NCBI GenBank assembly: GCA_031291825.1
Contig: JARLIG010000008.1
Coordinates: 5,674-69,673 of the forward strand
From: Minisyncoccota bacterium
GTDB taxonomy: Bacteria > Patescibacteriota > Minisyncoccia > Phycocordibacterales > UBA9973
Length of the DNA stretch: 64,000 nt
Reading direction: 5' to 3'
The position numbers were made by a program, and so were the translations under genes. The notes beneath the pieces are model-generated. The model was not told the origin of the DNA. It saw nothing but the letters and a program-made list of their open reading frames with translations, and ran no database searches. Below are positions 2,894 through 62,621 of this stretch, in pieces (within the stretch, counting starts at the first letter, position 1; every line of letters begins with the position of its first letter).

Positions 2894-3784
2894 ATGGCAG
2901 AAGAAAATAATTCAACAATAGATGAACAAATAAAAAAGCTGGAGGAAGAAATGGTTAGTCCAGATTTTTGGAGTGACAAAATAAGAGCGCAAAATGTTTT
3001 AAGGGAACTGGCGGAATTGAAAGAAAAAAAAGAAGGCGTGAATAAATACGATAAAGGTAACGCCATCGTCACCATTATTTCCGGTGCGGGCGGAGACGAC
3101 GCCGAAGATTTTTCCAGTATGTTGCTTGCCATGTATATGAAATATGCCACGAAGAGAGGTTGGGGAATTTCTTTTGTGAGTGAACACAAGAACGACCAAG
3201 GCGGATATCGTAATGTTTCTTTTGAAGTCGAAGGGAAAAATGCTTATGGCACCTTAAAAAACGAAGGCGGAGTGCATCGTCTCGTACGCGTTTCACCTTT
3301 CAATGCAAAAAAATTACGGCATACTTCTTTTTCTTTAGTGGAAGTCTTGCCGAAGTTTTCCAAAATGGAAGAGCGCGACGTTGTATTGTCACCGGACGAT
3401 TTAAAAATAGAATTTGCGCGTTCCGGTGGTCCCGGCGGACAAAATGTAAACAAAAGAGAGACAGCTGTTCGCATCGTTCACATTCCGACAAACATTGCCG
3501 TTAGTGTTCGTACGGAACGTTCACAAGAACAAAACAAAGAACAAGCGCTCGCGATTCTTCGCGCAAAAATTTTCAAAAAAGCGGAAGCAGAAAAGAAATC
3601 GGTCGAAGAAAGTATGAAGCTGACTAAAGATACAGAGATTGAATGGGGCAATCAGATACGTTCTTATGTTTTGCATCCATACAAAATGGTCAAAGACCAC
3701 CGCACCGGCGCGGAGACATCAAACGTAGATGAAGTTTTGGATGGCAACTTAGATATTTTCATTGAGGCTGAGAAAAATTTGTGA
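2894..3784 (+). CDS. prfB: Peptide chain release factor 2
   Basis: Contains the SPF tripeptide (RVSPFNAKKLRHTSF) and the GGQ motif (SGGPGGQNVNKRETAVRIVHIPT). At 296 aa the N-terminus is short. There is no upstream frameshift segment, because a tRNA sits immediately 5'. Confidence 0.9.
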   Translation: MAEENNSTIDEQIKKLEEEMVSPDFWSDKIRAQNVLRELAELKEKKEGVNKYDKGNAIVTIISGAGGDDAEDFSSMLLAMYMKYATKRGWGISFVSEHKNDQGGYRNVSFEVEGKNAYGTLKNEGGVHRLVRVSPFNAKKLRHTSFSLVEVLPKFSKMEERDVVLSPDDLKIEFARSGGPGGQNVNKRETAVRIVHIPTNIAVSVRTERSQEQNKEQALAILRAKIFKKAEAEKKSVEESMKLTKDTEIEWGNQIRSYVLHPYKMVKDHRTGAETSNVDEVLDGNLDIFIEAEKNL

Positions 3785-3796
3785 TAAGATGAGTAA

Positions 3797-4465
3797 GTGA
3801 TTTATTTTAATAACGTTTCTAAAATTTATAAAGATGCCACTGCGCTTCTCGATATTACTTTTACGGTTGAGGCAGGGGAATTTGTTTCTATCGTCGGACA
3901 TTCCGGCGCCGGCAAGACGACTCTCACAAAAATGATTTTAGCGGAAGAGAATCCAACGGATGGAACTGTTTTTTTTGAATCAATCAATGTGCATAAACTA
4001 AAAAGCAAAGATTTGACCAAGCTGAGGCGTCGTATTGGCGTCGTTTTTCAGGATTATAAATTGCTCTCAAATAAGACTGCTTATGAAAACATCGCTTTTG
4101 CGATGGAAGCAGTCGGTAAAACAGAAGAAGAAATTGCTTCCGATGTTCCACATGTTTTAGAACTGGTGGATTTGAGTCATCGGGTGAGTCATTTTCCACA
4201 CGAAATGTCTGGTGGAGAACAACAGCGTCTAGCAATTGCACGTGCTATCATCAACCAACCAGAACTGATTATTGCTGATGAGCCGACGGGGAATTTGGAC
4301 CCAGTGAACACGCATGAGATAGTGCAGATTCTAAAAAAAATAAATGATTTGGGTACAACCGTGATTTTAACCACTCATAATCGCGGAGTAATTGATTCGC
4401 TTAACAAGAGAGTCATTACGATGGAGAATGGTAAAATTATTCGAGACACCAAGACTAGCAAGTAA
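3797..4465 (+). CDS. ftsE: Cell-division ABC ATPase FtsE
   Basis: GTG start. Walker A GHSGAGKTT, ABC signature LSGGEQQRLAIARA and Walker B IIADEPTGNLD. It sits immediately upstream of ftsX. Confidence 0.9.
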   Translation: MIYFNNVSKIYKDATALLDITFTVEAGEFVSIVGHSGAGKTTLTKMILAEENPTDGTVFFESINVHKLKSKDLTKLRRRIGVVFQDYKLLSNKTAYENIAFAMEAVGKTEEEIASDVPHVLELVDLSHRVSHFPHEMSGGEQQRLAIARAIINQPELIIADEPTGNLDPVNTHEIVQILKKINDLGTTVILTTHNRGVIDSLNKRVITMENGKIIRDTKTSK

Positions 4466-34150: not shown

Positions 34151-34176
34151 TTAATATTATATAGGTGTGGATAAAC

Positions 34177-34224
34177 CTCCAGACGTTGGACGTCTGTAAG
34201 CTTACAGACGTCCAACGTCTGGAG
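34177..34224. repeat. 48-bp perfect palindrome of the CCAGACGT repeat family (intergenic)
   Basis: CTCCAGACGTTGGACGTCTGTAAGCTTACAGACGTCCAACGTCTGGAG is its own reverse complement. Confidence 0.85.
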
Positions 34225-44644: not shown

Positions 44645-46234
44645 ATGCAAGAAATTAACACCCAAATATTAATTATTGATTTAGGTTCTCAATACACGGA
44701 AATAATCAGACGCAGTTTGCGTTATTTGGGATTTCGCTCAACCATAATTTCTCCGGAGGAACTTTTAGAGGCTCCAGACGTTGGACGTCTGGAAGCTTCC
44801 AGACGTCCAACGTCTGGAGCGGGAGCCAACTTGAAGAGCATTATTTTATCTGGTGGTAGCGCCAGTGTCTATGATGGAGATGCTCCTAAAATTCCAAAAG
44901 AAATATTAGATTTAGGTATTCCAATTTTGGGCATTTGTTATGGAATGCAATGGTTGGCTTATGTCAACAATCCTGACTCTGTGCATAAAGTTAAAGAGGG
45001 TAAATCATATGGTCCTGTTGAAGTGACTTTAAGCAAAAGCAAACTTTTTGAAAATTTAAGCGAAAAGAATAATGGAAAGATAAATGCATGGTCCAGCCAT
45101 GGAGATTCAGTAAAAAAAGTTCCAGCTGACTTTAGTATTATTGCTACTTCCAAAGACGGTGTAGTGATTGAAGGTATGGAGTGTCAGGCGAAAAATATTT
45201 ATGCTGTGCAGTTTCATCCAGAAGTGGAGCAAACCGAAGATGAAAATATTATTTTAAATAATTTTGCTTCAAAAATTTGTAATTGCATTTTAGATTATGA
45301 CAAAAAAAATATCATAGAAGAAATTAGAACAAATACCAAAAAAATATTAGGTAATGGCACGGCAATTATTGGAGTCTCCGGCGGAGTTGATTCTACGACC
45401 TTGGCTGCTATTTTGGCGCCAGCACTAGGTGAGCAATTGAAAGCATTTGTGATTGATACTGGCGGAATGCGCAAAGATGAAGTTGAGAGGGTAAGAGAAA
45501 TCGCTAAAAAAGCAGGTGTAAACCTGGAAGTAATTGATAGGTATAAAAATAAATTTGTGGAAAGTGTGGGGAAGAGCATTGATGCTGAAGAAAAACGTGC
45601 TCACTTTCGAGCAGTTTACGGGGAAGTATTTCAAGAAGTGGCGAAATCCTATGGTGCAACCCATATGATTCAAGGAACTTTGGCGACTGATTTGATTGAA
45701 TCTGGTGGTGCCGGAAAGTCTGCTTTAATTAAGACACATCACAATGTTGACCTTAAACTTGGATTGAAGGAAATAATACCATTGTCTGATTTTTTCAAAT
45801 TTGAAGTGCGAGAACTAGCACGTGAATTTGGATTGGAAGAATTATTAACTAATCGTCAGCCTTTCCCAGGCCCAGGTTTGTATTTGCGAATTGTTGGAGT
45901 AAAAGTCACAGAAGAATTATTGGAGATTGTTCGAGAGGCAGATTATGAAGTGACACAAATTCTAAAAAAACACAATGTTTATAAGGATATTTCTCAAACT
46001 ATTGTGGCGCTCCTCGGAGTAAATACTGTGGGAGTAAAAGGCGATGGCAGAGTCTATGGATATTCTTTGGTGGTGCGTACCGTGGAGACAATTGATTTTA
46101 TGACAGTCAAGGGATTTTACTTAGAGAAAGTTATCTGTGAAGAAATAACTAGCGCGTTGGTCAAGCATCCAAAAATTGTTCGAGTGTTTTTTGATTGGAC
46201 GACCAAACCTCCAGCAACGACTGAATTTGAATAA
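44645..46234 (+). CDS. guaA: GMP synthase (glutamine-hydrolysing), carrying a 16-aa in-frame palindromic-repeat insertion
   Basis: The track ORF starts at 44609, but a terminator overlaps it, so the ATG at 44645 (MQEINTQILIIDLGSQYTE) is preferred. GATase signature GICYGMQ, ATP-PPase P-loop GVSGGVDSTT, and C-terminal KPPATTEFE are present. Confidence 0.95.
   Translation: MQEINTQILIIDLGSQYTEIIRRSLRYLGFRSTIISPEELLEAPDVGRLEASRRPTSGAGANLKSIILSGGSASVYDGDAPKIPKEILDLGIPILGICYGMQWLAYVNNPDSVHKVKEGKSYGPVEVTLSKSKLFENLSEKNNGKINAWSSHGDSVKKVPADFSIIATSKDGVVIEGMECQAKNIYAVQFHPEVEQTEDENIILNNFASKICNCILDYDKKNIIEEIRTNTKKILGNGTAIIGVSGGVDSTTLAAILAPALGEQLKAFVIDTGGMRKDEVERVREIAKKAGVNLEVIDRYKNKFVESVGKSIDAEEKRAHFRAVYGEVFQEVAKSYGATHMIQGTLATDLIESGGAGKSALIKTHHNVDLKLGLKEIIPLSDFFKFEVRELAREFGLEELLTNRQPFPGPGLYLRIVGVKVTEELLEIVREADYEVTQILKKHNVYKDISQTIVALLGVNTVGVKGDGRVYGYSLVVRTVETIDFMTVKGFYLEKVICEEITSALVKHPKIVRVFFDWTTKPPATTEFE
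44772..44819. repeat. 48-bp perfect palindrome (CCAGACGT family) inserted in-frame inside guaA
   Basis: CTCCAGACGTTGGACGTCTGGAAGCTTCCAGACGTCCAACGTCTGGAG translates as (A)PDVGRLEASRRPTSG. Removing exactly these 48 bp gives a contiguous canonical GATase loop. Confidence 0.85.
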
Positions 46235-48910: not shown

Positions 48911-49378
48911 TTAATAATCTGACTTCTCATATTTCCAAGAGACGACATCTCCAGGGTTTATCTTATAATTTGAAATACCAATTTGTGCTTCTATACCGTT
49001 CACATAGTAAATCCAAACCAAGCTATTACTATTTTTTATTCCGTTTATTTCATTTATAAATTTACCCATACTCATATAATTTTGTTCGGTGAAATTTATT
49101 TTTCCTTCACTTCGGAGCTGGCTCATAAAATCATAGACACTCATTTTCTGTGTAATGGCATCTTCATAGCTGACTCCGTTTATTTCTAAAACAGTTTCAA
49201 TTGTTTTGGTCTGGCTGACAGGTTTATTTGCTGTGGTATTTAGATTTAAATTTTCTGAAATGGCAGGAAGGTTAGTCGTCTGTTGTTTTGGAGCTCCGTG
49301 TGGAATAAAGAAAAATAATCCTAATAATATTAAAACTATGATGACCACTATAATTATTTTTATTTTTTTATTTTTCAT
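48911..49378 (-). CDS. Membrane-anchored DUF4430 domain protein
   Basis: TM anchor, then VYDFMSQLRSEGKINFT...MGKFINEINGI...LVWIYYVNGIEAQIGISNYKINPGDVVSWKYE matches the DUF4430 consensus (YW.Y.VNG....G.S.Y.L..GD.I.W.Y). Confidence 0.7.
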   Translation of the reverse strand: MKNKKIKIIIVVIIVLILLGLFFFIPHGAPKQQTTNLPAISENLNLNTTANKPVSQTKTIETVLEINGVSYEDAITQKMSVYDFMSQLRSEGKINFTEQNYMSMGKFINEINGIKNSNSLVWIYYVNGIEAQIGISNYKINPGDVVSWKYEKSDY

Positions 49379-49394
49379 AAATTAAGCACAAAAA

Positions 49395-49590
49395 AAATCC
49401 TGCCAGATAGAATCCAGAGCAGAATTTGGGGTCCTTCAAATAAAGAGATAAATGAAGGCAAAGAGACTTTTGTCCTGCTCGGGAATACATGAAACGATTG
49501 GTATTCGGACTTGTCTTCGACCTAGGTCGAAGCTTACCGTAGCGGCACTGTACTGGAATCAAACCAGTTTCCCCAATAGTTTCTTTTCGT
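49395..49590 (-). ncRNA. Candidate cobalamin riboswitch in the leader of the DUF4430 operon
   Basis: The minus strand reads UAUUGGGGAAACUGGUUUGAUUCCAGUACAGUGCCGCUACGGUAAGC...(hairpin)...GAAGACAAGUCCGAAUACCAAUCG. This matches the B12-element core GGGAA-n3-GGUG-nAAnUCC...CnG-nCCCGCCACUGU and the 3' AAGUCAGGAUACC block. An expression-platform hairpin and U8 tract lie at about 49391-49420. Confidence 0.4.
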
Positions 49591-49632
49591 TTTCAAATGA
49601 ACTCACTCTAGTATATACTTACCCTATATCTT

Positions 49633-50070
49633 ATGTCAAAGAAAAGTGTGGAAACAAAAAAAAAGAAAATTATGGTCTTTGGAACTTTCGACGGTCTACA
49701 TAAAGGTCATGTTGATTTTTTTAAACAGGCTAAAAACTTCATAAAAAATTCATTTTTAATTGTTTCAATAGCTAGAGATAAAAATGTTTTAAAAATAAAA
49801 GGGGAGTATCCAAGTTTAAAAGAGGGAGAACGGGTCGCCTTAGTTGAAAGTTGTAAACTAGCTGATAAAGTTATTTTGTCTGGTACAAAAAACCATATTC
49901 CACATATTGTGAAAATCCGTCCAGATATTATTGCTCTAGGTTACGACCAAAAAGCCTATGTGAAAGATTTAAAAAAAGATTTAAAAAACAAGGGTGTTTT
50001 AGTTAAAATCATACGTCTTAAACCTTACAAGGAACATGTTTATAAGAATCACTTGCTAAAAATTAAGTGA
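49633..50070 (+). CDS. Cytidylyltransferase-superfamily protein, closest to archaeal-type FAD synthase RibL (FMN adenylyltransferase)
   Basis: (H/T)xGH motif GTFDGLHKGH. LIVSIARD...LKGE.P...ERV..V...K.ADKVILG...IRPDIIALGYDQ parallels RibL. The start may be the ATG at 49672 (MVFGTFDG). Confidence 0.6.
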   Translation: MSKKSVETKKKKIMVFGTFDGLHKGHVDFFKQAKNFIKNSFLIVSIARDKNVLKIKGEYPSLKEGERVALVESCKLADKVILSGTKNHIPHIVKIRPDIIALGYDQKAYVKDLKKDLKNKGVLVKIIRLKPYKEHVYKNHLLKIK

Positions 50071-51394: not shown

Positions 51395-52558
51395 TTAAAT
51401 ATCAGCCTTGCGAATAGTTGAGGCGAGGTAAACTCCAAAAAGCATCATCAACCCCAAGACGGGGAAGATGAAATTAAATTTCGGTAGAAAAATAAAAACC
51501 ATTAAGGCCACAATCGGTCCAGTAATGTAAGCCAAAGGACTTGTGCTACGGTAAATTCCGACAAATTCTTCATTTTCTGGTTTGATGTGTTTAAAAAAAT
51601 ACGAGTCACTCATGACTTCGACAGTTGCGGCGCCGACTCGAGTCAAGAAAAGCAATGCTGCCCATATCCAAATCTCTGGTTTTTGAATAAAGAACAGAGA
51701 AATGGTTGAAATAGAAATAATAAAAAATCCAACCATCAACATTTTTCTTTCACCGACCTTATCTGAATATCTTCCCATTGAAGACTCAATCAACACAAAA
51801 GGTAAGAGCATTATGGTAAAAATTATAGCAATATCTTTCCAAGTGAAACCTAAATAAGAATATAGATATATAGGTGTATAAATAATCATCCAGCAATAGA
51901 AGAACTGCAGAAGAAAATCTATACTATATGAACGTAAAAGATTTTTATTTTTTATAAAATCCTTAACATAACTTAAGATTTTTAATCTGTCGTATTTTGG
52001 GTCTGGAATATTTTTGAGTCCAAATAAAGATAATAGGAAAAATAATATCATTATAAAAAAAGCAATGATATAAATTGTTTTCAAGGGAAAATTTCCAAAA
52101 ACTGTTCCGGATAATAATTGTGCCACGACCCAAGCAAAATTACTTAAAGCAAGATAGATACCTCTAATTCTTCCAGTTGCTGATTCCTTAGAAAATATCT
52201 TTAATAATTCATCCAACGAAAAGAAAACTACGATATTTAAGGCAAAGCCAAGAACAAAAGAACATACAGCAGAAAAAGCATTAGTAGATAATGCCAACCA
52301 CAGTATCGATAGAGTATTAAGTCCAATTACTAACAATAAAAATCTATGCCCTCCAATTTTTCTAAAAACCCTTGGAGCAAACAAAAGCATCAAGATAGAA
52401 ACGAGTGAACCTAAGGTATAAACTAATCCAACAAATCTCTCACCGATAAACGGTGAGAGAAAACTGGAGTTTATATAAGACATCAACGCTATTGGAATTG
52501 ATGCCAAGAAACCCGCAAAGTATATAATTATTCTGTCACGCTTCATATTTTTAAACAC
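51395..52558 (-). CDS. MFS-type transporter
   Basis: 387 aa and 12 TMs. Confidence 0.65.
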   Translation of the reverse strand: MFKNMKRDRIIIYFAGFLASIPIALMSYINSSFLSPFIGERFVGLVYTLGSLVSILMLLFAPRVFRKIGGHRFLLLVIGLNTLSILWLALSTNAFSAVCSFVLGFALNIVVFFSLDELLKIFSKESATGRIRGIYLALSNFAWVVAQLLSGTVFGNFPLKTIYIIAFFIMILFFLLSLFGLKNIPDPKYDRLKILSYVKDFIKNKNLLRSYSIDFLLQFFYCWMIIYTPIYLYSYLGFTWKDIAIIFTIMLLPFVLIESSMGRYSDKVGERKMLMVGFFIISISTISLFFIQKPEIWIWAALLFLTRVGAATVEVMSDSYFFKHIKPENEEFVGIYRSTSPLAYITGPIVALMVFIFLPKFNFIFPVLGLMMLFGVYLASTIRKADI

Positions 52559-54578
52559 TCAAGATTACAGGAATGACTAGAGGTCTCTTGGCAGTTTTTT
52601 GGTATAAGAATTTTGAAATATTTTCTCCCAAGTTGGCTTTAATGTGGTCAAAATCCATATTGTTTTCACCCTGATTTAAGGAAAGGGGAACCTTGGCAGT
52701 CATATCTTCGATTGATTTTTTAATAATGATTCTAACCTGACGCAGAAGTTCTTGATTTTCTTTTAAGTAAACAAATCCTCTGGAAATTAAGTCTGGAGAT
52801 TTTTTGAGCTTTCCAGTTTTTTGGTCAAGCAAAGCAATGATGACAAACATACCATCTTGTGAAAGCATCTGACGGTCTCGGATGACGACATCTTGGGTGT
52901 CAGAGACGGAAGTGCCGTCCACCAACATTGGTCCACTTGGAGCTGTTTCTTTTCTTCTTGTTATTTTTTGTCCATCAGCGGATATTTCAATTATTGAACC
53001 ATTGTCTGGTACGACAATATTTTCTTCTGACATCCCCAGTTCCATTGCTAGCTCTTTGTGTTTTTCCAAAAAAGAATGATTTCCATGAATTGGAATAAAG
53101 AATTTTGGATGAGTCTTGTGGTGAAGCCATTTAATGTCTTCTTGGTTGCCGTGACCAGTCGCGTGAACAAAGTCTTCTCCAGCAGTGCGGTAACTGATAA
53201 TTTTTACACCCTGTCTAGTTAAACCATCTTTCATTTTTTGAACCTTAAGTTCATTACCTGGAATGATGGAGGCAGAAAGAATGATTGTATCACCTTTGTG
53301 GAGTTTAAATTTAGTGTGTGATTTATTGGCTGCGCGATTGAGTGAAGCAAATTCTTCGCCTTGCGCGCCAGTCATTAAGATAATGACTTTATTTGGAGGA
53401 TAATTATCAGCATCTTCAATTGGAATAATCGTGCCCTTTTTTGGGGTGAAAAGTCCAGCTTCAATTGCTACATCGATGTTTGTTTTCATCGAACGTCCAT
53501 CCAAAACTATTTTTTTACCCATGGTCTCTGCAAATTTAACAATATGAGCCAATCTGGTAATATGTGAAGCGAAAGCGGCAATAATCATTCGACCTTGTAC
53601 TTTTTTTATTAAATTCTCAAGTCCTTGGTGGACTTTTATTTCCGGTAGAGAAAAACCTTCATTTTCGATATTAGTGGAATCAGTCATCAAAAGAAGCACT
53701 TTAGCTTTGTCGAAAATTGAATATTCTCTTTCTTCATCTTTGGCGACGACTCCGTCTACTTGGTCTAGCTTATAATCTCCCGGAGTGACAATCCAGCCGT
53801 TGGCGGTTTCGATAATTATTCCCATTGAGTCTGGAATAGTATGGGTGACACCGAAGAATCGGATTTTTATTTTTCCACAAGTTATAACTGAATCTTTTTC
53901 TACAATAACTTCTTTCATGGGTGCTAATTGTGGAAATTCTGCTTGACGTTTTCGCATCATCAAGATAGAAAGATTTCTAGAATAAACTGGTGGGTTTCCA
54001 ATGCGTGAAAGTACCAATGGTACACCACCAATGTGGTCTAAGTGCCCGTGAGTAATCAAAAGCGCACGAATTTTATCTTTGCGTTCTTCTAGATAAGTCG
54101 TATTTGGTATCACATAGTCAACTCCAGGGGTGGCTTCAGTAGAAAAAAGCATACCAGCATCAATAATAACGATGTCGTCATCGATTTCGATAGCAGTCAT
54201 ATTTTTCCCAATTTCTTCTACTCCGCCGAGCGGGATAATACGCACCACGCCTTTTTCTGGTGGGGGAATTTTTGCCATGTTAGCGTTCTTGTATTGATTT
54301 TTTTGAGGAAAAGAGCCAGTGGAAGAACTTGGTCCAAATCTTTTTTTGGTATATTGATATGTAGAACTTTTTAAGTTTCTTTTATTTTGCGTGTTTCTTC
54401 CAGGTGTCCCGTGTTTTTGGATGACAGATGTTCCACGTCTTGATAAATTACCTCCAGACGTTCCACGTCTGGAAGCTTCCAGACGTGGAACGTCTGGAGA
54501 AGCTGAGTTTGTACCTTTGTTTTCCTCCTTAGTGTCCTTTGTTATAGACGAGAAAGAGAGTCTTGTTTTTTTTGTCAT
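52551..54578 (-). CDS. rnj: Ribonuclease J (metallo-beta-lactamase/beta-CASP), with a repeat-containing N-terminal extension
   Basis: HxHxDH motif LITHGHLDHIGGVP and beta-CASP motifs. The track ORF is 675 aa. The canonical RNase J body starts at M101 (MAKIPPPEKGVVRIIPLGGVEEIGKN; ATG at 54276-54278). The preceding 100 aa contain a CCAGACG palindrome copy. Confidence 0.9.
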   Translation of the reverse strand: MTKKTRLSFSSITKDTKEENKGTNSASPDVPRLEASRRGTSGGNLSRRGTSVIQKHGTPGRNTQNKRNLKSSTYQYTKKRFGPSSSTGSFPQKNQYKNANMAKIPPPEKGVVRIIPLGGVEEIGKNMTAIEIDDDIVIIDAGMLFSTEATPGVDYVIPNTTYLEERKDKIRALLITHGHLDHIGGVPLVLSRIGNPPVYSRNLSILMMRKRQAEFPQLAPMKEVIVEKDSVITCGKIKIRFFGVTHTIPDSMGIIIETANGWIVTPGDYKLDQVDGVVAKDEEREYSIFDKAKVLLLMTDSTNIENEGFSLPEIKVHQGLENLIKKVQGRMIIAAFASHITRLAHIVKFAETMGKKIVLDGRSMKTNIDVAIEAGLFTPKKGTIIPIEDADNYPPNKVIILMTGAQGEEFASLNRAANKSHTKFKLHKGDTIILSASIIPGNELKVQKMKDGLTRQGVKIISYRTAGEDFVHATGHGNQEDIKWLHHKTHPKFFIPIHGNHSFLEKHKELAMELGMSEENIVVPDNGSIIEISADGQKITRRKETAPSGPMLVDGTSVSDTQDVVIRDRQMLSQDGMFVIIALLDQKTGKLKKSPDLISRGFVYLKENQELLRQVRIIIKKSIEDMTAKVPLSLNQGENNMDFDHIKANLGENISKFLYQKTAKRPLVIPVILSV
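54428..54499. repeat. CCAGACGT-family palindrome (loop variant TTCCA/TGGAA) plus an upstream half-unit, within the rnj 5' region
   Basis: CTCCAGACGTTCCACGTCTGGAAGCTTCCAGACGTGGAACGTCTGGAG at 54452-54499, preceded by ATGTTCCACGTCTTG at 54429-54443. In the long rnj frame it translates as SPDVPRLEASRRGTSG, the same frame as in guaA. Confidence 0.85.
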
Positions 54579-56686: not shown

Positions 56687-57742
56687 TTGCATATTTGGAG
56701 TAAAGATGCAATACATGATATAATTTTTGATATGAAAAACGACAAAAATAACAATCAGCTTTCAATATTAGGTTTGTTCGAGAAATTATTCCATAATTTT
56801 AATGCTCGCGCGATGAAGGATGCGACACTCGCTTTCAAGAAGCATCTAGATGACGGCGGCAAGATGTTTCTCGCGATGGGCGGAGCGATGTCTTCTGCTC
56901 AGATGGGTATCACGCTTGCTTCTATGATTAAAGAAAATAAGATTCATGCGATTTCTTGCACTGGCGCAAACTTGGAAGAATCTGTTTTTCGTCTTGTGGC
57001 GCACAATAGTTATAAAGATTATCCAGATTATCGATATTTTACCAAGGAAGATGATGAGGCGATTTTAAATCGCGGAGAACGTCGCGTGACCGATACTTCC
57101 ATTCCCGAAGAAGAAGCTTTCCGTGTGGTGGAGCCGATTATTTTAAAACGTTGGAAAGAAGCGGAAAAAAACGGCGAGCGTTTTTTTCCGCATGAATATT
57201 TTTACCAAATACTTTTGTCGGATGAATTAAAAGGTAAATACGAGGGCAGTCCAGAACATTGCTGGCTCTTGGAAGCGGCGAAGAAAAATTTACCGATTGT
57301 GGTGCCAGGTTGGGAAGACTCTACTTTGGGAAATATTTTTGCTGGATATTGTAAGGCAGGAGAAATTAAACCTAGTGTCATGAAGACAGGAGTGGAATAC
57401 ATGATGTATCTTTACGACCGATACACTGAGCTTGCGGCGGGAGGTCCAGGACTTGGCTTCTTCCAGATTGGTGGAGGAATTTCTGGAGACTTTCCGATTT
57501 GTGTCGTGCCTTCTATAAAATATGATTTGAAAAAACCAGTGCGACCTTGGGGATATTTCTGCCAGATTTCTGATAGTACCACTTCTTACGGTTCGTATTC
57601 TGGAGCGACTCCAAATGAAAAAATAACTTGGGATAAACTCACTAAAGAAACTCCAATGTTCGTCATCGAGTCGGATGCCACCATCGTCGCTCCTCTGATG
57701 TTTGAAGCCATTTTAGACCGCTACACTTTATCCCTCAAATAG
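56687..57742 (+). CDS. Deoxyhypusine synthase-like protein
   Basis: FLAMGGAMSSAQMGITLASMIKENKIHAISCTGANLEE and the C-terminal region match the DHS family. The start may be the downstream ATG (MKNDKNNN). Confidence 0.8.
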   Translation: MHIWSKDAIHDIIFDMKNDKNNNQLSILGLFEKLFHNFNARAMKDATLAFKKHLDDGGKMFLAMGGAMSSAQMGITLASMIKENKIHAISCTGANLEESVFRLVAHNSYKDYPDYRYFTKEDDEAILNRGERRVTDTSIPEEEAFRVVEPIILKRWKEAEKNGERFFPHEYFYQILLSDELKGKYEGSPEHCWLLEAAKKNLPIVVPGWEDSTLGNIFAGYCKAGEIKPSVMKTGVEYMMYLYDRYTELAAGGPGLGFFQIGGGISGDFPICVVPSIKYDLKKPVRPWGYFCQISDSTTSYGSYSGATPNEKITWDKLTKETPMFVIESDATIVAPLMFEAILDRYTLSLK

Positions 57743-61034: not shown

Positions 61035-61073
61035 GAGACGTCGGTATCCTGCGAAGCAGGAGCCCGACGTCTG
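61035..61073. repeat. GACGTC-containing 9-bp-stem palindrome with a nested hairpin, in a divergent intergenic region
   Basis: AGACGTCGG tatCCTGCgaaGCAGGag CCGACGTCT. It is related to the CCAGACGT repeat family. Confidence 0.5.
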
Positions 61074-61092: not shown

Positions 61093-61515
61093 GTGCTTAA
61101 AAATAAAATTTACAATTTTTTTGGCAGGCGATATGTCGTCAGACGCAGAGTGATACGCGTTGCAGGGCCAAAGAAAATTCTCGGCCATCTCACGGCAAAA
61201 GATTTTAAGGAAAATAAAAAGGCATCGTATGCGCTCATAACCGAGAGGATTGCATATTTCAATCAATCGGGAGAATTTCCGGTAGGGAAGATATTTATAA
61301 AAAATCAAAAGACCAGATGGGGCAGCTGCTCAGGAAAAAGAAATTTGAGTTTCAATTACAAACTCCTTTTTCTGCCGGAAAATCTAAGAGACTATATTAT
61401 CATTCACGAACTCTGCCATCTAAAGGAAATGAATCATTCCAAAAATTTCTGGTCCCTCGTCGCCCTCCAAGTGCCAAATTACAAATCCCTCCGCAGACAA
61501 ATCAAGCCTTACTAG
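61093..61515 (+). CDS. YgjP-like (DUF45) putative metal-dependent hydrolase / metallopeptidase
   Basis: YIIIHELCHLKEMNHSKNFWSLV matches the family motif HELcHl.e.nHs..FW. Confidence 0.75.
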   Translation: MLKNKIYNFFGRRYVVRRRVIRVAGPKKILGHLTAKDFKENKKASYALITERIAYFNQSGEFPVGKIFIKNQKTRWGSCSGKRNLSFNYKLLFLPENLRDYIIIHELCHLKEMNHSKNFWSLVALQVPNYKSLRRQIKPY

Positions 61516-61519
61516 AATT

Positions 61520-61537
61520 CCAGACGTCCAACGTCTG
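61520..61537. repeat. Single CCAGACGT hairpin unit immediately after a stop codon
   Basis: CCAGACGTCCAACGTCTG begins 5 nt after the TAG of the YgjP-like gene. Confidence 0.7.
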
Positions 61538-61616
61538 TAGGTTTATCCACATTTAGATATTACTATATAGTATATATACAAATATAATGTTTTAAATTCA
61601 TGGTATTATATATTAT

Positions 61617-62621
61617 ATGAATAGGGTATTAGCTAAAAAACAAAGCTTAGGTCAGTTTTTCACAACAAATGATTTTTGGCTCAAAGATCATGTCTTGAAA
61701 TTTATAAAATCTACAAAAGCTGAGATTGCTTTTGACCCTTTTGCTGGTGATGGTGATTTATTAAGAGTAGCAAAAAAAATTGGTTTTAAAAAAATAAAAG
61801 GATTAGATATAGATAAAAATCTGAAGTGGGAATACAATGATAGCCTTTTGAGTATTCCAAAAATAAAAAAATCAATTATCATCACTAATCCACCGTATTT
61901 AACCAACTACAGCGCCAAGAGGAAGGGAGTTTACGAGGATGTTAAGAAATATTTTGATATTTGTAATTATGATGATATATACCAACTAGCCATTGAAAAA
62001 TGTCTAGAGAATGAATTTGGAGTAATGATTATTCCAGAAACTTTTATAAATTCAAAATTTCCAAAACATCGCTTAGTAAGTATTACAATAATTGAAGAGC
62101 AACTATTTAATGACACAGAAAATCCTGTTTGTGTCATATGTTTCAATGGCGAAGAGAAAAATTACGAAGATGTAAAAGTTTACAAAAATGAGAAATTTCT
62201 TGGAAGCCTGGGTTTTTTTGAAAAAATGAGAAAGATACCAAGCAAGAATACTTACGTAAAATTTAATTCTCTAAAAGGACAAATTGCCTTAAGAGCAGTA
62301 GATACAACAAATCCCCAAAGACCTATTTCTTTTATGAAACCAGAAGAAATGGACTATGATCTGACAACTATTAAACATAGTTCAAGATTGATTACACTAA
62401 TTGAATTAAATGCCACAAAAGATACAATAGATAAAATAATTATTTATAGCAATAAAGCACTTTTTGATTTTAGAAAAAAGACATCAGATGTTTTACTGTC
62501 TCCGTTTAAGGGGAATAAGAAAAATGGTGAAAGGAGAAGGAGGCTTGATTATTTGACAGCAAGAGCAATCTTAGAAGAAGCACATGATTTTACTCAAACA
62601 GGTAAATTATTTCCTTTGTAA
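61617..62621 (+). CDS. Type II N6-adenine DNA methyltransferase (gamma-class amino-methyltransferase)
   Basis: Motif X-like LGQFFTT, motif I DPFAGDGDLL, and motif IV ITNPPY. Confidence 0.8.
   Translation: MNRVLAKKQSLGQFFTTNDFWLKDHVLKFIKSTKAEIAFDPFAGDGDLLRVAKKIGFKKIKGLDIDKNLKWEYNDSLLSIPKIKKSIIITNPPYLTNYSAKRKGVYEDVKKYFDICNYDDIYQLAIEKCLENEFGVMIIPETFINSKFPKHRLVSITIIEEQLFNDTENPVCVICFNGEEKNYEDVKVYKNEKFLGSLGFFEKMRKIPSKNTYVKFNSLKGQIALRAVDTTNPQRPISFMKPEEMDYDLTTIKHSSRLITLIELNATKDTIDKIIIYSNKALFDFRKKTSDVLLSPFKGNKKNGERRRRLDYLTARAILEEAHDFTQTGKLFPL

Follow-up and report, generated by a model that had tools for sequence, protein, structure and literature searches.

A 64,000-nucleotide stretch of DNA from a Minisyncoccota bacterium, an uncultured member of the Paceibacteria (contig JARLIG010000008.1 of assembly GCA_031291825.1), referred to here as the window, carries on its minus strand the gene rnj, which encodes the ribonuclease RNase J and contains a 48-nt perfect palindrome in the early part of its open reading frame (ORF). 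The encoded protein is 100% identical to MDR3519537.1, a protein of a Candidatus Pacebacteria metagenome-assembled genome (MAG). The original prediction for this locus had assigned the palindrome to a repeat family that is also represented inside guaA, and had offered two readings of it: translated as part of RNase J if translation starts at the first ATG (54578), or a hairpin in the 5' untranslated region (UTR) of rnj if translation starts at M101. The features of the rnj locus, in window coordinates, are as follows.

52551-54578, minus strand: full RNase J ORF, 675 aa, with the Pfam domains RNase_J_b_CASP, RNase_J_C and Lactamase_B
54276-54578, minus strand: N-terminal extension, codons 1-101, clade-specific, translated as judged by ortholog conservation and codon-position pattern, and modelled as disordered
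54549-54578, minus strand: start motif MTKKTRLSFS, with 54578-54576 called as the true start codon from ortholog conservation and codon pattern
54452-54499, minus strand: 48-nt perfect palindrome, an inverted dimer with the centre AAGCTT, at ORF nt 80-127 and encoding S27-G42
54424-54442, minus strand: degenerate third half-unit CAAGACGTGGAACATCTGT, with 2-3 mismatches, oriented like the second unit and encoding SRRGTSV
54333-54371, minus strand: conserved motif KSSTYQYTKKRFG, codons 70-82, the 3' boundary of a hypervariable linker
54276-54278, minus strand: ATG of M101, the alternative start of the original prediction, not conserved in orthologs

Anatomy of the palindrome and the start of rnj

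The arms of the palindrome (54452-54475 and 54476-54499) are 24 nt each, are 100% complementary and are separated by a spacer of 0 nt. The rnj-strand sequence, CTCCAGACGTTCCACGTCTGGAAGCTTCCAGACGTGGAACGTCTGGAG, is the one given in the original prediction, and read from 54499 to 54452 it splits at the centre into CTCCAGACGTTCCACGTCTGGAAG and CTTCCAGACGTGGAACGTCTGGAG. Each half is itself a small 19-nt hairpin unit, CCAGACGT-NNN-ACGTCTGG, and the two units are inverted with respect to each other. The rnj copy has the loops TCC/GGA, compared with TGG/CCA elsewhere in the family, and because this loop change is symmetrical the 48-nt palindrome is still perfect. Folding of the RNA predicts a 23-bp stem, with a dG of -62.2 kcal/mol for the 201-nt region (z = -7.1). 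The expectation that a loop variant of the same family lies in the 5' region of the rnj ORF was thus borne out. The extra degenerate half-unit that had been described beside it also exists, but it is upstream only in having lower plus-strand coordinates: it occupies ORF nt 137-155 and lies 3' of the doublet in the mRNA.

Other accounts of the site were considered. A scan flagged the hairpin as an intrinsic terminator by way of GTAATTTATC; this was rejected, given that the orthologs have no T-run after the hairpin and that the site lies inside a conserved ORF. An assembly artefact was rejected because the palindrome is in frame and independent assemblies have palindromes at the same site. When the window was scanned with Rfam 15 at the gathering score, only three tRNAs and a cobalamin riboswitch were found, and no family was assigned to the rnj site.

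The position of the start codon was examined in the 120 closest database RNase J proteins, which are 630-675 aa long. All but one of them (119/120) carry the N-terminal extension from the upstream Met, with the start M(T/I/K)KKTRLSFS and with the KSSTYQYTKKRFG motif ~30 residues before the canonical IIPLGG. In a 40-sequence alignment, residues K3, R6, L7, F9 and S10, as well as K70, S72, T73, Y74, Q75, Y76, K79 and G82, are invariant. At the DNA level, the KSSTYQYTKKRFG motif varies among ten orthologs at 13 of 13 third positions, 2 first positions and 4 second positions, and the conserved Ser of KKTRLSFS is encoded by both TCN and AGY codons in the same orthologs; third-position variation together with a Ser codon switch is, as a codon-level signature, that of purifying selection on the protein. 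Many orthologs have S, I, V, T or some other residue in place of M101, and no Shine-Dalgarno sequence was found ahead of M101. The upstream gene, which encodes a solute-binding protein (SBP), stops 14 nt short of ATG 54578, and the synteny of the two genes is conserved. Weaker motifs of the SSYQY type were also seen in relatives of 64-71% identity (L018, L021, L022 and L024).

A start at M101 (MAKIPPPEKG...), which would make the palindrome a regulatory hairpin in the rnj 5' UTR, has points in its favour. The canonical fold of RNase J sets in near residue 101-113, the hairpin is highly stable, one database protein (P0035) begins at the equivalent of M101, and many N-terminal repetitive extragenic palindromic (REP) elements elsewhere may indeed be extragenic (Di Nocera et al., PMC3733652). 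However, since the extension is conserved as protein and M101 is not, the 5' UTR reading is refuted by the very comparison of ortholog N-termini that the original prediction had proposed, and we consider it extremely improbable. From conservation of the reading frame and gene order, the start of rnj translation is instead assigned to ATG 54578, and the palindrome is read as the peptide SPDVPRLEASRRGTSG (S27-G42).

A family of inverted hairpin units in the window

The 19-nt unit has 19 matches over both strands of the window, against 0.02 expected, and its stem pattern has 10 matches against 0.13 expected. The family comprises five loci in these 64 kb, three of them intergenic, one inside guaA and one inside rnj, and four of the five are inverted doublets whose arms of 20-25 nt are 100% complementary. 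Besides rnj, the loci are the following.

847-894, no strand assigned: intergenic doublet, 3 nt past the stop of the minus-strand ORF 898-2592, with a head motif at 826-834
34177-34224, no strand assigned: intergenic doublet with the centre TAAGCTTA, between two plus-strand ORFs, with the head TGTGGATAAACCT at 34166-34178
44771-44820, plus strand: family doublet inside guaA, with the peptide APDVGRLEASRRPTSG, a ~15-residue insertion in a loop of the GATase domain
61520-61551, no strand assigned: intergenic single unit (61520-61538) plus head, reverse complement TGTGGATAAACCTACAGACGTTGGACGTCTGG, 5 nt past the stop of the ORF 61093-61515

The three intergenic loci lie 3-26 nt past a stop codon, in what is a small sample with two of the five loci intragenic. 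Across the window and a related MAG, a 13-nt head, TGTGGATAA(A/C)CCT, adjoins the unit in 11 of 13 intergenic loci, and the centre CTGTAAGCTTACAG is found in 5 of 10 intergenic doublets, including the one at 34177-34224. Both intragenic copies have the centre CTGGAAGCTTCCAG, with GAA where the intergenic form has TAA; the intergenic centre would thus place a stop codon in the phase used by rnj and guaA. Among 185,579 reference species the exact doublet was found in one only, that of this related MAG, which is assigned to Candidatus Nomurabacteria and includes the sequence L005, and the doublet pattern was absent from the viral contigs searched.

The head TGTGGATAA is a perfect match to the DnaA-box consensus, i.e. 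TTATCCACA, and abuts the TGG-loop side of the unit. Three of the six perfect DnaA boxes in the window are family heads (826-834, 34166-34174 and 61543-61551), and heads were also seen in L001, L002, L003 and L005. Such a head could be a recognition or cleavage site of a transposase or a genuine DnaA site. Restriction-modification genes of the Eco57I/MmeI type are found near family copies at 61617-62621 (plus strand) of the window, at L006 1-2667 and at L090 1-127.

The 48-nt core equals 16 codons and starts at codon position 2 in both rnj and guaA. One relative has a palindrome of a related type in a glycerate-kinase-like gene (SPDVGHLLKQVSNVG), and guaA of the relative L006 has one too, both in the equivalent phase. 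The idea that the rnj element is translated as nearly the same peptide as in guaA, in the same frame, is therefore supported by the ortholog N-termini, the codon pattern and the synteny, and the same frame holds in every intragenic case seen (rnj, guaA and the glycerate-kinase-like gene). As the shared phase rests on only three independent genes, it is not statistically compelling (chance ~1/9). The form with the GAA centre is open in all three phases, and the phase used gives the most hydrophilic peptide. When the peptides of the three frames were concatenated and queried against the protein database, short words were shared with 33 candidates, none of which scored at E <= 10. The related type itself, GATGTTGGACAYCTGC-TAAA-GCAGRTGTMCAACATC, was observed at L002 6710-6749, at L006 19377-19415 and at L005 895-945 and 4225-4260, and guaA of L006 is apparently fragmented into two ORFs at its site.

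Within RNase J, the palindrome lies inside a hypervariable linker between the MTKKTRLSFS and KSSTYQYTKKRFG motifs. Alignment with solved structures of RNase J starts only at residue ~101-113, and in an AlphaFold model residues 1-101 have a predicted local distance difference test (pLDDT) score of 23-31 and no secondary structure; going by this model, the N-terminal linker is probably disordered. The 705-residue RNase J chain 8cgl_A likewise has ~100-140 extra residues before the canonical fold, whereas the Paceibacteria extension has conserved motifs of its own. The guaA repeat falls on a gap of ~15 residues in the alignment with the solved GMP synthase 7mo6_A, directly ahead of the amidotransferase-domain strand IILSGG, and a diverged palindrome is present at the orthologous guaA site of L006. 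The intragenic copies are in frame at positions that the fold tolerates (the gap relative to 7mo6_A in guaA; a linker with pLDDT below 31 in rnj). In rnj, a place between the two conserved motifs and outside the catalytic fold would explain why the repeat is tolerated.

History of the rnj copy and co-evolution of its arms

Ten orthologs for which DNA was available have a palindrome at the same place in rnj, L006, L007 and L088-L094 among them. Each palindrome is near-perfect and the sequences differ, as in the following cases.

L088, rnj-site palindrome: CCAGACGCTCCTCGTCTGG-atc-CCAGACGAGGAGCGTCTGG
L089, rnj-site palindrome: GCAGATATCGGACGTCTGGA-t-TCCAGACGTCCGATATCTGC
L006, rnj-site palindrome: AGACATTCCACGTCTGC-aaa-GCAGACGTGGAATGTCT

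Despite this sequence turnover, the stem remains 14-24 bp long, and the two arms of the rnj palindrome co-evolve. Under a model of a single long hairpin, 89% of the cells of the alignment are paired, and 11 of the 20 pairs have changed on both sides. The covariation score of this hairpin was matched by none of 500 shuffles, slid controls gave 0-3 two-sided pairs, and RNAalifold independently predicted the long hairpin with 18 pairs, 10 of them with compensatory changes. A model of two small hairpins showed no covariation and was rejected for the single long one. Where the palindrome survives its arms change together, which points to maintenance of the long palindrome, whether by hairpin-templated correction, by gene conversion or by selection acting on the hairpin.

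The rnj copy is old and is shared with relatives, as a palindrome or as remnants at the same place. The rnj copy of the window has the loops TCC/GGA in common with L006 and with none of its sister copies in the window, L007 and L094 have the same imperfections, L090 and L093 have the same variant, and the architecture of a doublet with remnants of a third unit is common to the window, L006, L007 and L093. These shared loops, defects and architectures indicate vertical descent. It could be argued instead that each genome's own repeat variant was inserted independently into a permissive linker, so that the paired changes merely record the divergence of the family. The bearers of the palindrome are indeed scattered over the rough ortholog tree, the hypervariable linker holds other repeat-like peptides such as PARNxxHSxAGGE, and related species are known to accumulate REPs at one and the same position of a gene, as in recB of Xanthomonas (PMC3733652). 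However, repeated insertion fits poorly with the shared loop variant, imperfections and third unit, and the surroundings of rnj in L088-L093 yielded no matching intergenic copies. We therefore regard independent insertions as unlikely, though with some weight.

Other repeat-like linker peptides (PARNxxHSxAGGEHK and PARPDDSGHSSGE) occur in the RNase J orthologs P0016, P0031, P0040, P0045, P0048, P0083, P0110 and others, and look like translations of other palindromic repeat families. In L095, the sole DNA examined for such linkers, no palindrome exceeded the score threshold of 8. The genes that a metagenome scan for relatives of rnj brought up were mostly distant, and none of them had a linker palindrome.

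A palindrome-like peptide is kept in 18 of the 119 orthologs with the extension (~15%), and many others have decayed remnants such as RPQNRRATS; the closest relative, P0002, has apparently lost one arm. Retention at this level argues against an essential function. It bears also on the suggestion that selection retains the repeat because of the peptide it encodes, PDV(P/G)RL...SRR(G/P)TS, for instance as an RNA-binding or phosphorylation site, with the palindromy incidental. The segment is basic, with many Ser and Thr residues, as would be plausible for a disordered RNA-binding tail, and the phase is the same in every intragenic copy. On the other side, G and P swap in keeping with nucleotide complementarity (7 G/P and 5 P/G of 18), the peptide is unconserved and absent from most orthologs, and the three-frame database query gave no scoring match. 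Maintenance for the peptide is thus very improbable.

What, then, keeps the arms symmetrical? In E. coli mutagenesis, quasipalindrome correction by template switching copies a change in one arm into the other. By analogy, such a process would give paired changes at rnj in the absence of RNA selection, although it is a mutational mechanism and not a repeat family. We favour arm correction or conversion at the DNA level as the most economical cause of the co-evolution, and selection on the hairpin appears less likely, given that most lineages can do without the element and that its family is dispersed.

Selection would be the cause if the hairpin were a cis-acting RNA structure in the early coding region of rnj, a co-opted repeat that controls expression as a target of RNase III or RNase J, as a block to decay by a 5' exonuclease or as a translational speed bump. 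The co-evolution of the arms in ten orthologs and the preserved stem length are in its favour. So is the finding that in five relatives no other family copy lies within ~20 kb of rnj, the rnj copy thus persisting without obvious neighbours. A perfect duplex of 20 bp or more is, moreover, a classical RNase III substrate. In E. coli, rne and rnc have autoregulatory hairpins in their untranslated leaders, which are gene-specific; the rnj hairpin resembles them as a stable hairpin near the 5' end of a ribonuclease message, but it is translated, comes from a dispersed family and has been lost in most orthologs. Besides this low retention and the apparent loss of an arm in P0002, the family is found in guaA and in intergenic DNA, with no tie to rnj. 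Among unpaired cells G-T (6) is not above A-C (11), so that there is no sense-strand RNA signature, and the weak T-run is not conserved. A selected cis-acting structure therefore seems quite unlikely to us. A more specific proposal holds that the long hairpin, which falls within the first 130 coding nt of rnj, has been co-opted as a cis-regulator whose pairing is selected in a subset of the Paceibacteria because it tunes the RNase J level, for instance by offering a site to RNase III or to RNase J itself. This is decidedly unlikely; if true, the regulation of a ribonuclease gene would run through a palindromic repeat that is translated.

A candidate transposase and the origin of the family

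In the sequence L005 of the Nomurabacteria MAG, a doublet with its head (3883-3930) lies 74 nt upstream of a 243-codon gene (3078-3809). An HUH motif, H84-F-H86, and the residues Y108 and Y111 are invariant in the encoded protein and its homologs. The protein gives sub-threshold scores of 22.8 bits with the Pfam family Y1_Tnp and of 27.7 bits with the NCBIfam family REP_Tyr_transpos, the REP-associated tyrosine transposases (RAYTs). In a fold search with its predicted structure, the top 30 matches were all transposases of the IS200/IS605 family (IS608, ISDra2 and IS200-type) and the E. coli RAYT 4er8, with E-values of 1e-5 to 5e-3, the best being IS608 TnpA, ISDra2 TnpA and 4er8. The protein has more than 3,200 homologs, mostly in Paceibacteria, and several of these carry the JGI label 'REP element-mobilizing transposase RayT'. 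One homolog, MDR3519412.1, is 80% identical to the L005 protein, and its accession lies 125 numbers from that of the RNase J of the window, MDR3519537.1; this proximity indicates that it very probably belongs to the same MAG as the window. We infer that the family was mobilised by a RAYT-like transposase of this kind.

A second RAYT-like paralog in the same Nomurabacteria MAG is flanked by a different palindrome of its own, GTTAAACAC-nnn-GTGTTTAAC, in L002 1-545; its copies lie at 21-41, inside the coding sequence, and at 522-542, just after the gene. The latter copy is followed by what, by the look of the sequence, is a putative tRNA gene.

Taken together, we consider it probable that the rnj palindrome is an old, in-frame REP/REPIN-like repeat that is translated and tolerated in a disordered linker, with its arms maintained. 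The family would be specific to the lineage, built of 19-nt hairpin units of which two, inverted, make the 48-nt perfect palindrome, and it most likely arose and spread through the action of a RAYT-like HUH/Y1 transposase on single-stranded hairpins. The copy in rnj, in frame in the linker, would be read as ~26 residues of hydrophilic filler (SPDVPRLEASRRGTSG plus the SRRGTS of the decayed third unit). Its arms would be kept symmetrical at the DNA level, through gene conversion or correction templated by the hairpin, or else through selection on the hairpin.

Several observations weigh against this view. The L005 protein falls below both curated cut-offs (22.8 against 23 bits for Y1_Tnp; 27.7 against 80 bits for REP_Tyr_transpos), its structural model is of moderate confidence (pLDDT 63), and by sequence neither the protein nor its profile matched the chains of solved RAYT or TnpA proteins in the PDB. 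No RAYT gene was found in the 64-kb window. The repeats have neither the GTAG nor the external CGTC head of classified REPs, and a different 13-nt head takes its place. The copy number is low (five loci in 64 kb), rnj aside no copy was found in the ~20 kb around the gene in the five relatives mentioned above, and neither insertion polymorphism nor a target-site signature was seen, so that the mobility of the family is putative. The call of disorder comes from a mediocre model, with a whole-model mean pLDDT of 58, and the ten sequences used for covariation were picked because their peptides looked palindrome-derived.

Comparison with known systems places the family close to the REP/REPIN repeats that accompany RAYTs in Pseudomonas fluorescens and E. 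coli (PMC3116915, PMC2817692, PMC3479197). Common to both are short G+C-rich hairpin units in multiple copies, inverted pairs that can form one long hairpin, and singles beside doublets. In the small sample here, three of the five loci are intergenic and near gene 3' ends, and in a relative an HUH/Y1 transposase-like gene is flanked by a copy. The present family differs in its 48-nt doublet with a centre of 6-8 nt, in its low copy number with two of five loci intragenic, in its head, TGTGGATAA(A/C)CCT rather than GTAG, and in its host, which belongs to the candidate phyla radiation (CPR)/Patescibacteria; the transposase-like protein represents a divergent clade below the curated RAYT threshold. 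A CGTC does occur, inside the stem of the unit and not outside it as in the CGTC REPs, and the stem does not start with A/T pairs.

Intragenic insertions offer a second comparison. Dimers of GTAG/CGTC REPs inside genes encode 20-30 aa, often near N-termini, where the copies may be non-coding (Di Nocera et al. 2013, PMC3733652), and the Rickettsia palindromic elements (RPEs), first described at ~150 bp, are the classic case of in-frame insertion (PMC10969869). As in those systems, the copies studied here are in frame in housekeeping genes, often near the N-terminus, are compatible with the fold, contribute ~16-30 residues per dimer or group and occupy the same gene position in related species. 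The likeness is one of description: the element has 48 nt against the ~150 bp of an RPE and the host phylum differs, and here the N-terminal copy is coding, as judged by conservation, and its arms co-evolve across ten species.

Other conserved palindromes were observed in the window and its relatives. One, with a 13-bp stem, GCGGAAAAAAACG-n5-CGTTTTTTTCCGC, lies at 57161-57191 inside a deoxyhypusine-synthase-like ORF (56687-57742, plus strand), where it gives the peptide AEKNGERFFP. It recurs at L006 7466-7496, L089 6867-6897 and L090 7419-7449, with a paired change from AAACG/CGTTT to AAGCG/CGCTT in L089, and is thus a second coding-region hairpin conserved across relatives. An imperfect palindrome, AGACGTCGGTATCCTGC / GCAGGAGCCCGACGTCT, at 61036-61072 of the window and at L006 2755-2791, has its arm variants swapped, as if the whole palindrome had been inverted. 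The cobalamin riboswitch (Rfam RF00174, 40 bits) lies on the minus strand at 49479-49621, 3' of the minus-strand ORF 49633-50070 and upstream of ORFs at 48911-49378.

Implications for the clade and for REP-like repeats

For the clade, these results settle the gene model: its RNase J starts at the upstream Met with a conserved extension of ~100 residues, which annotators should keep. Our literature search found nothing pertinent on REPs or RAYTs in Patescibacteria/CPR. The CPR host is accordingly new here, as are the distinct head with the compact doublet and the divergent RAYT-like clade, together with direct evidence of a translated N-terminal copy and of arm co-evolution across species. CPR bacteria, with their tiny genomes, would thereby be added to the bacteria that carry REP/RAYT-like repeats and that have palindromes inserted in frame in housekeeping enzymes, the latter being a phenomenon known best from Rickettsia. 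The orthologous rnj palindromes form a compact data set, provided by nature, with which to ask whether intragenic symmetry is kept by templated correction or by selection, and they may reveal how a disordered protein tail takes in sequence that derives from a repeat.

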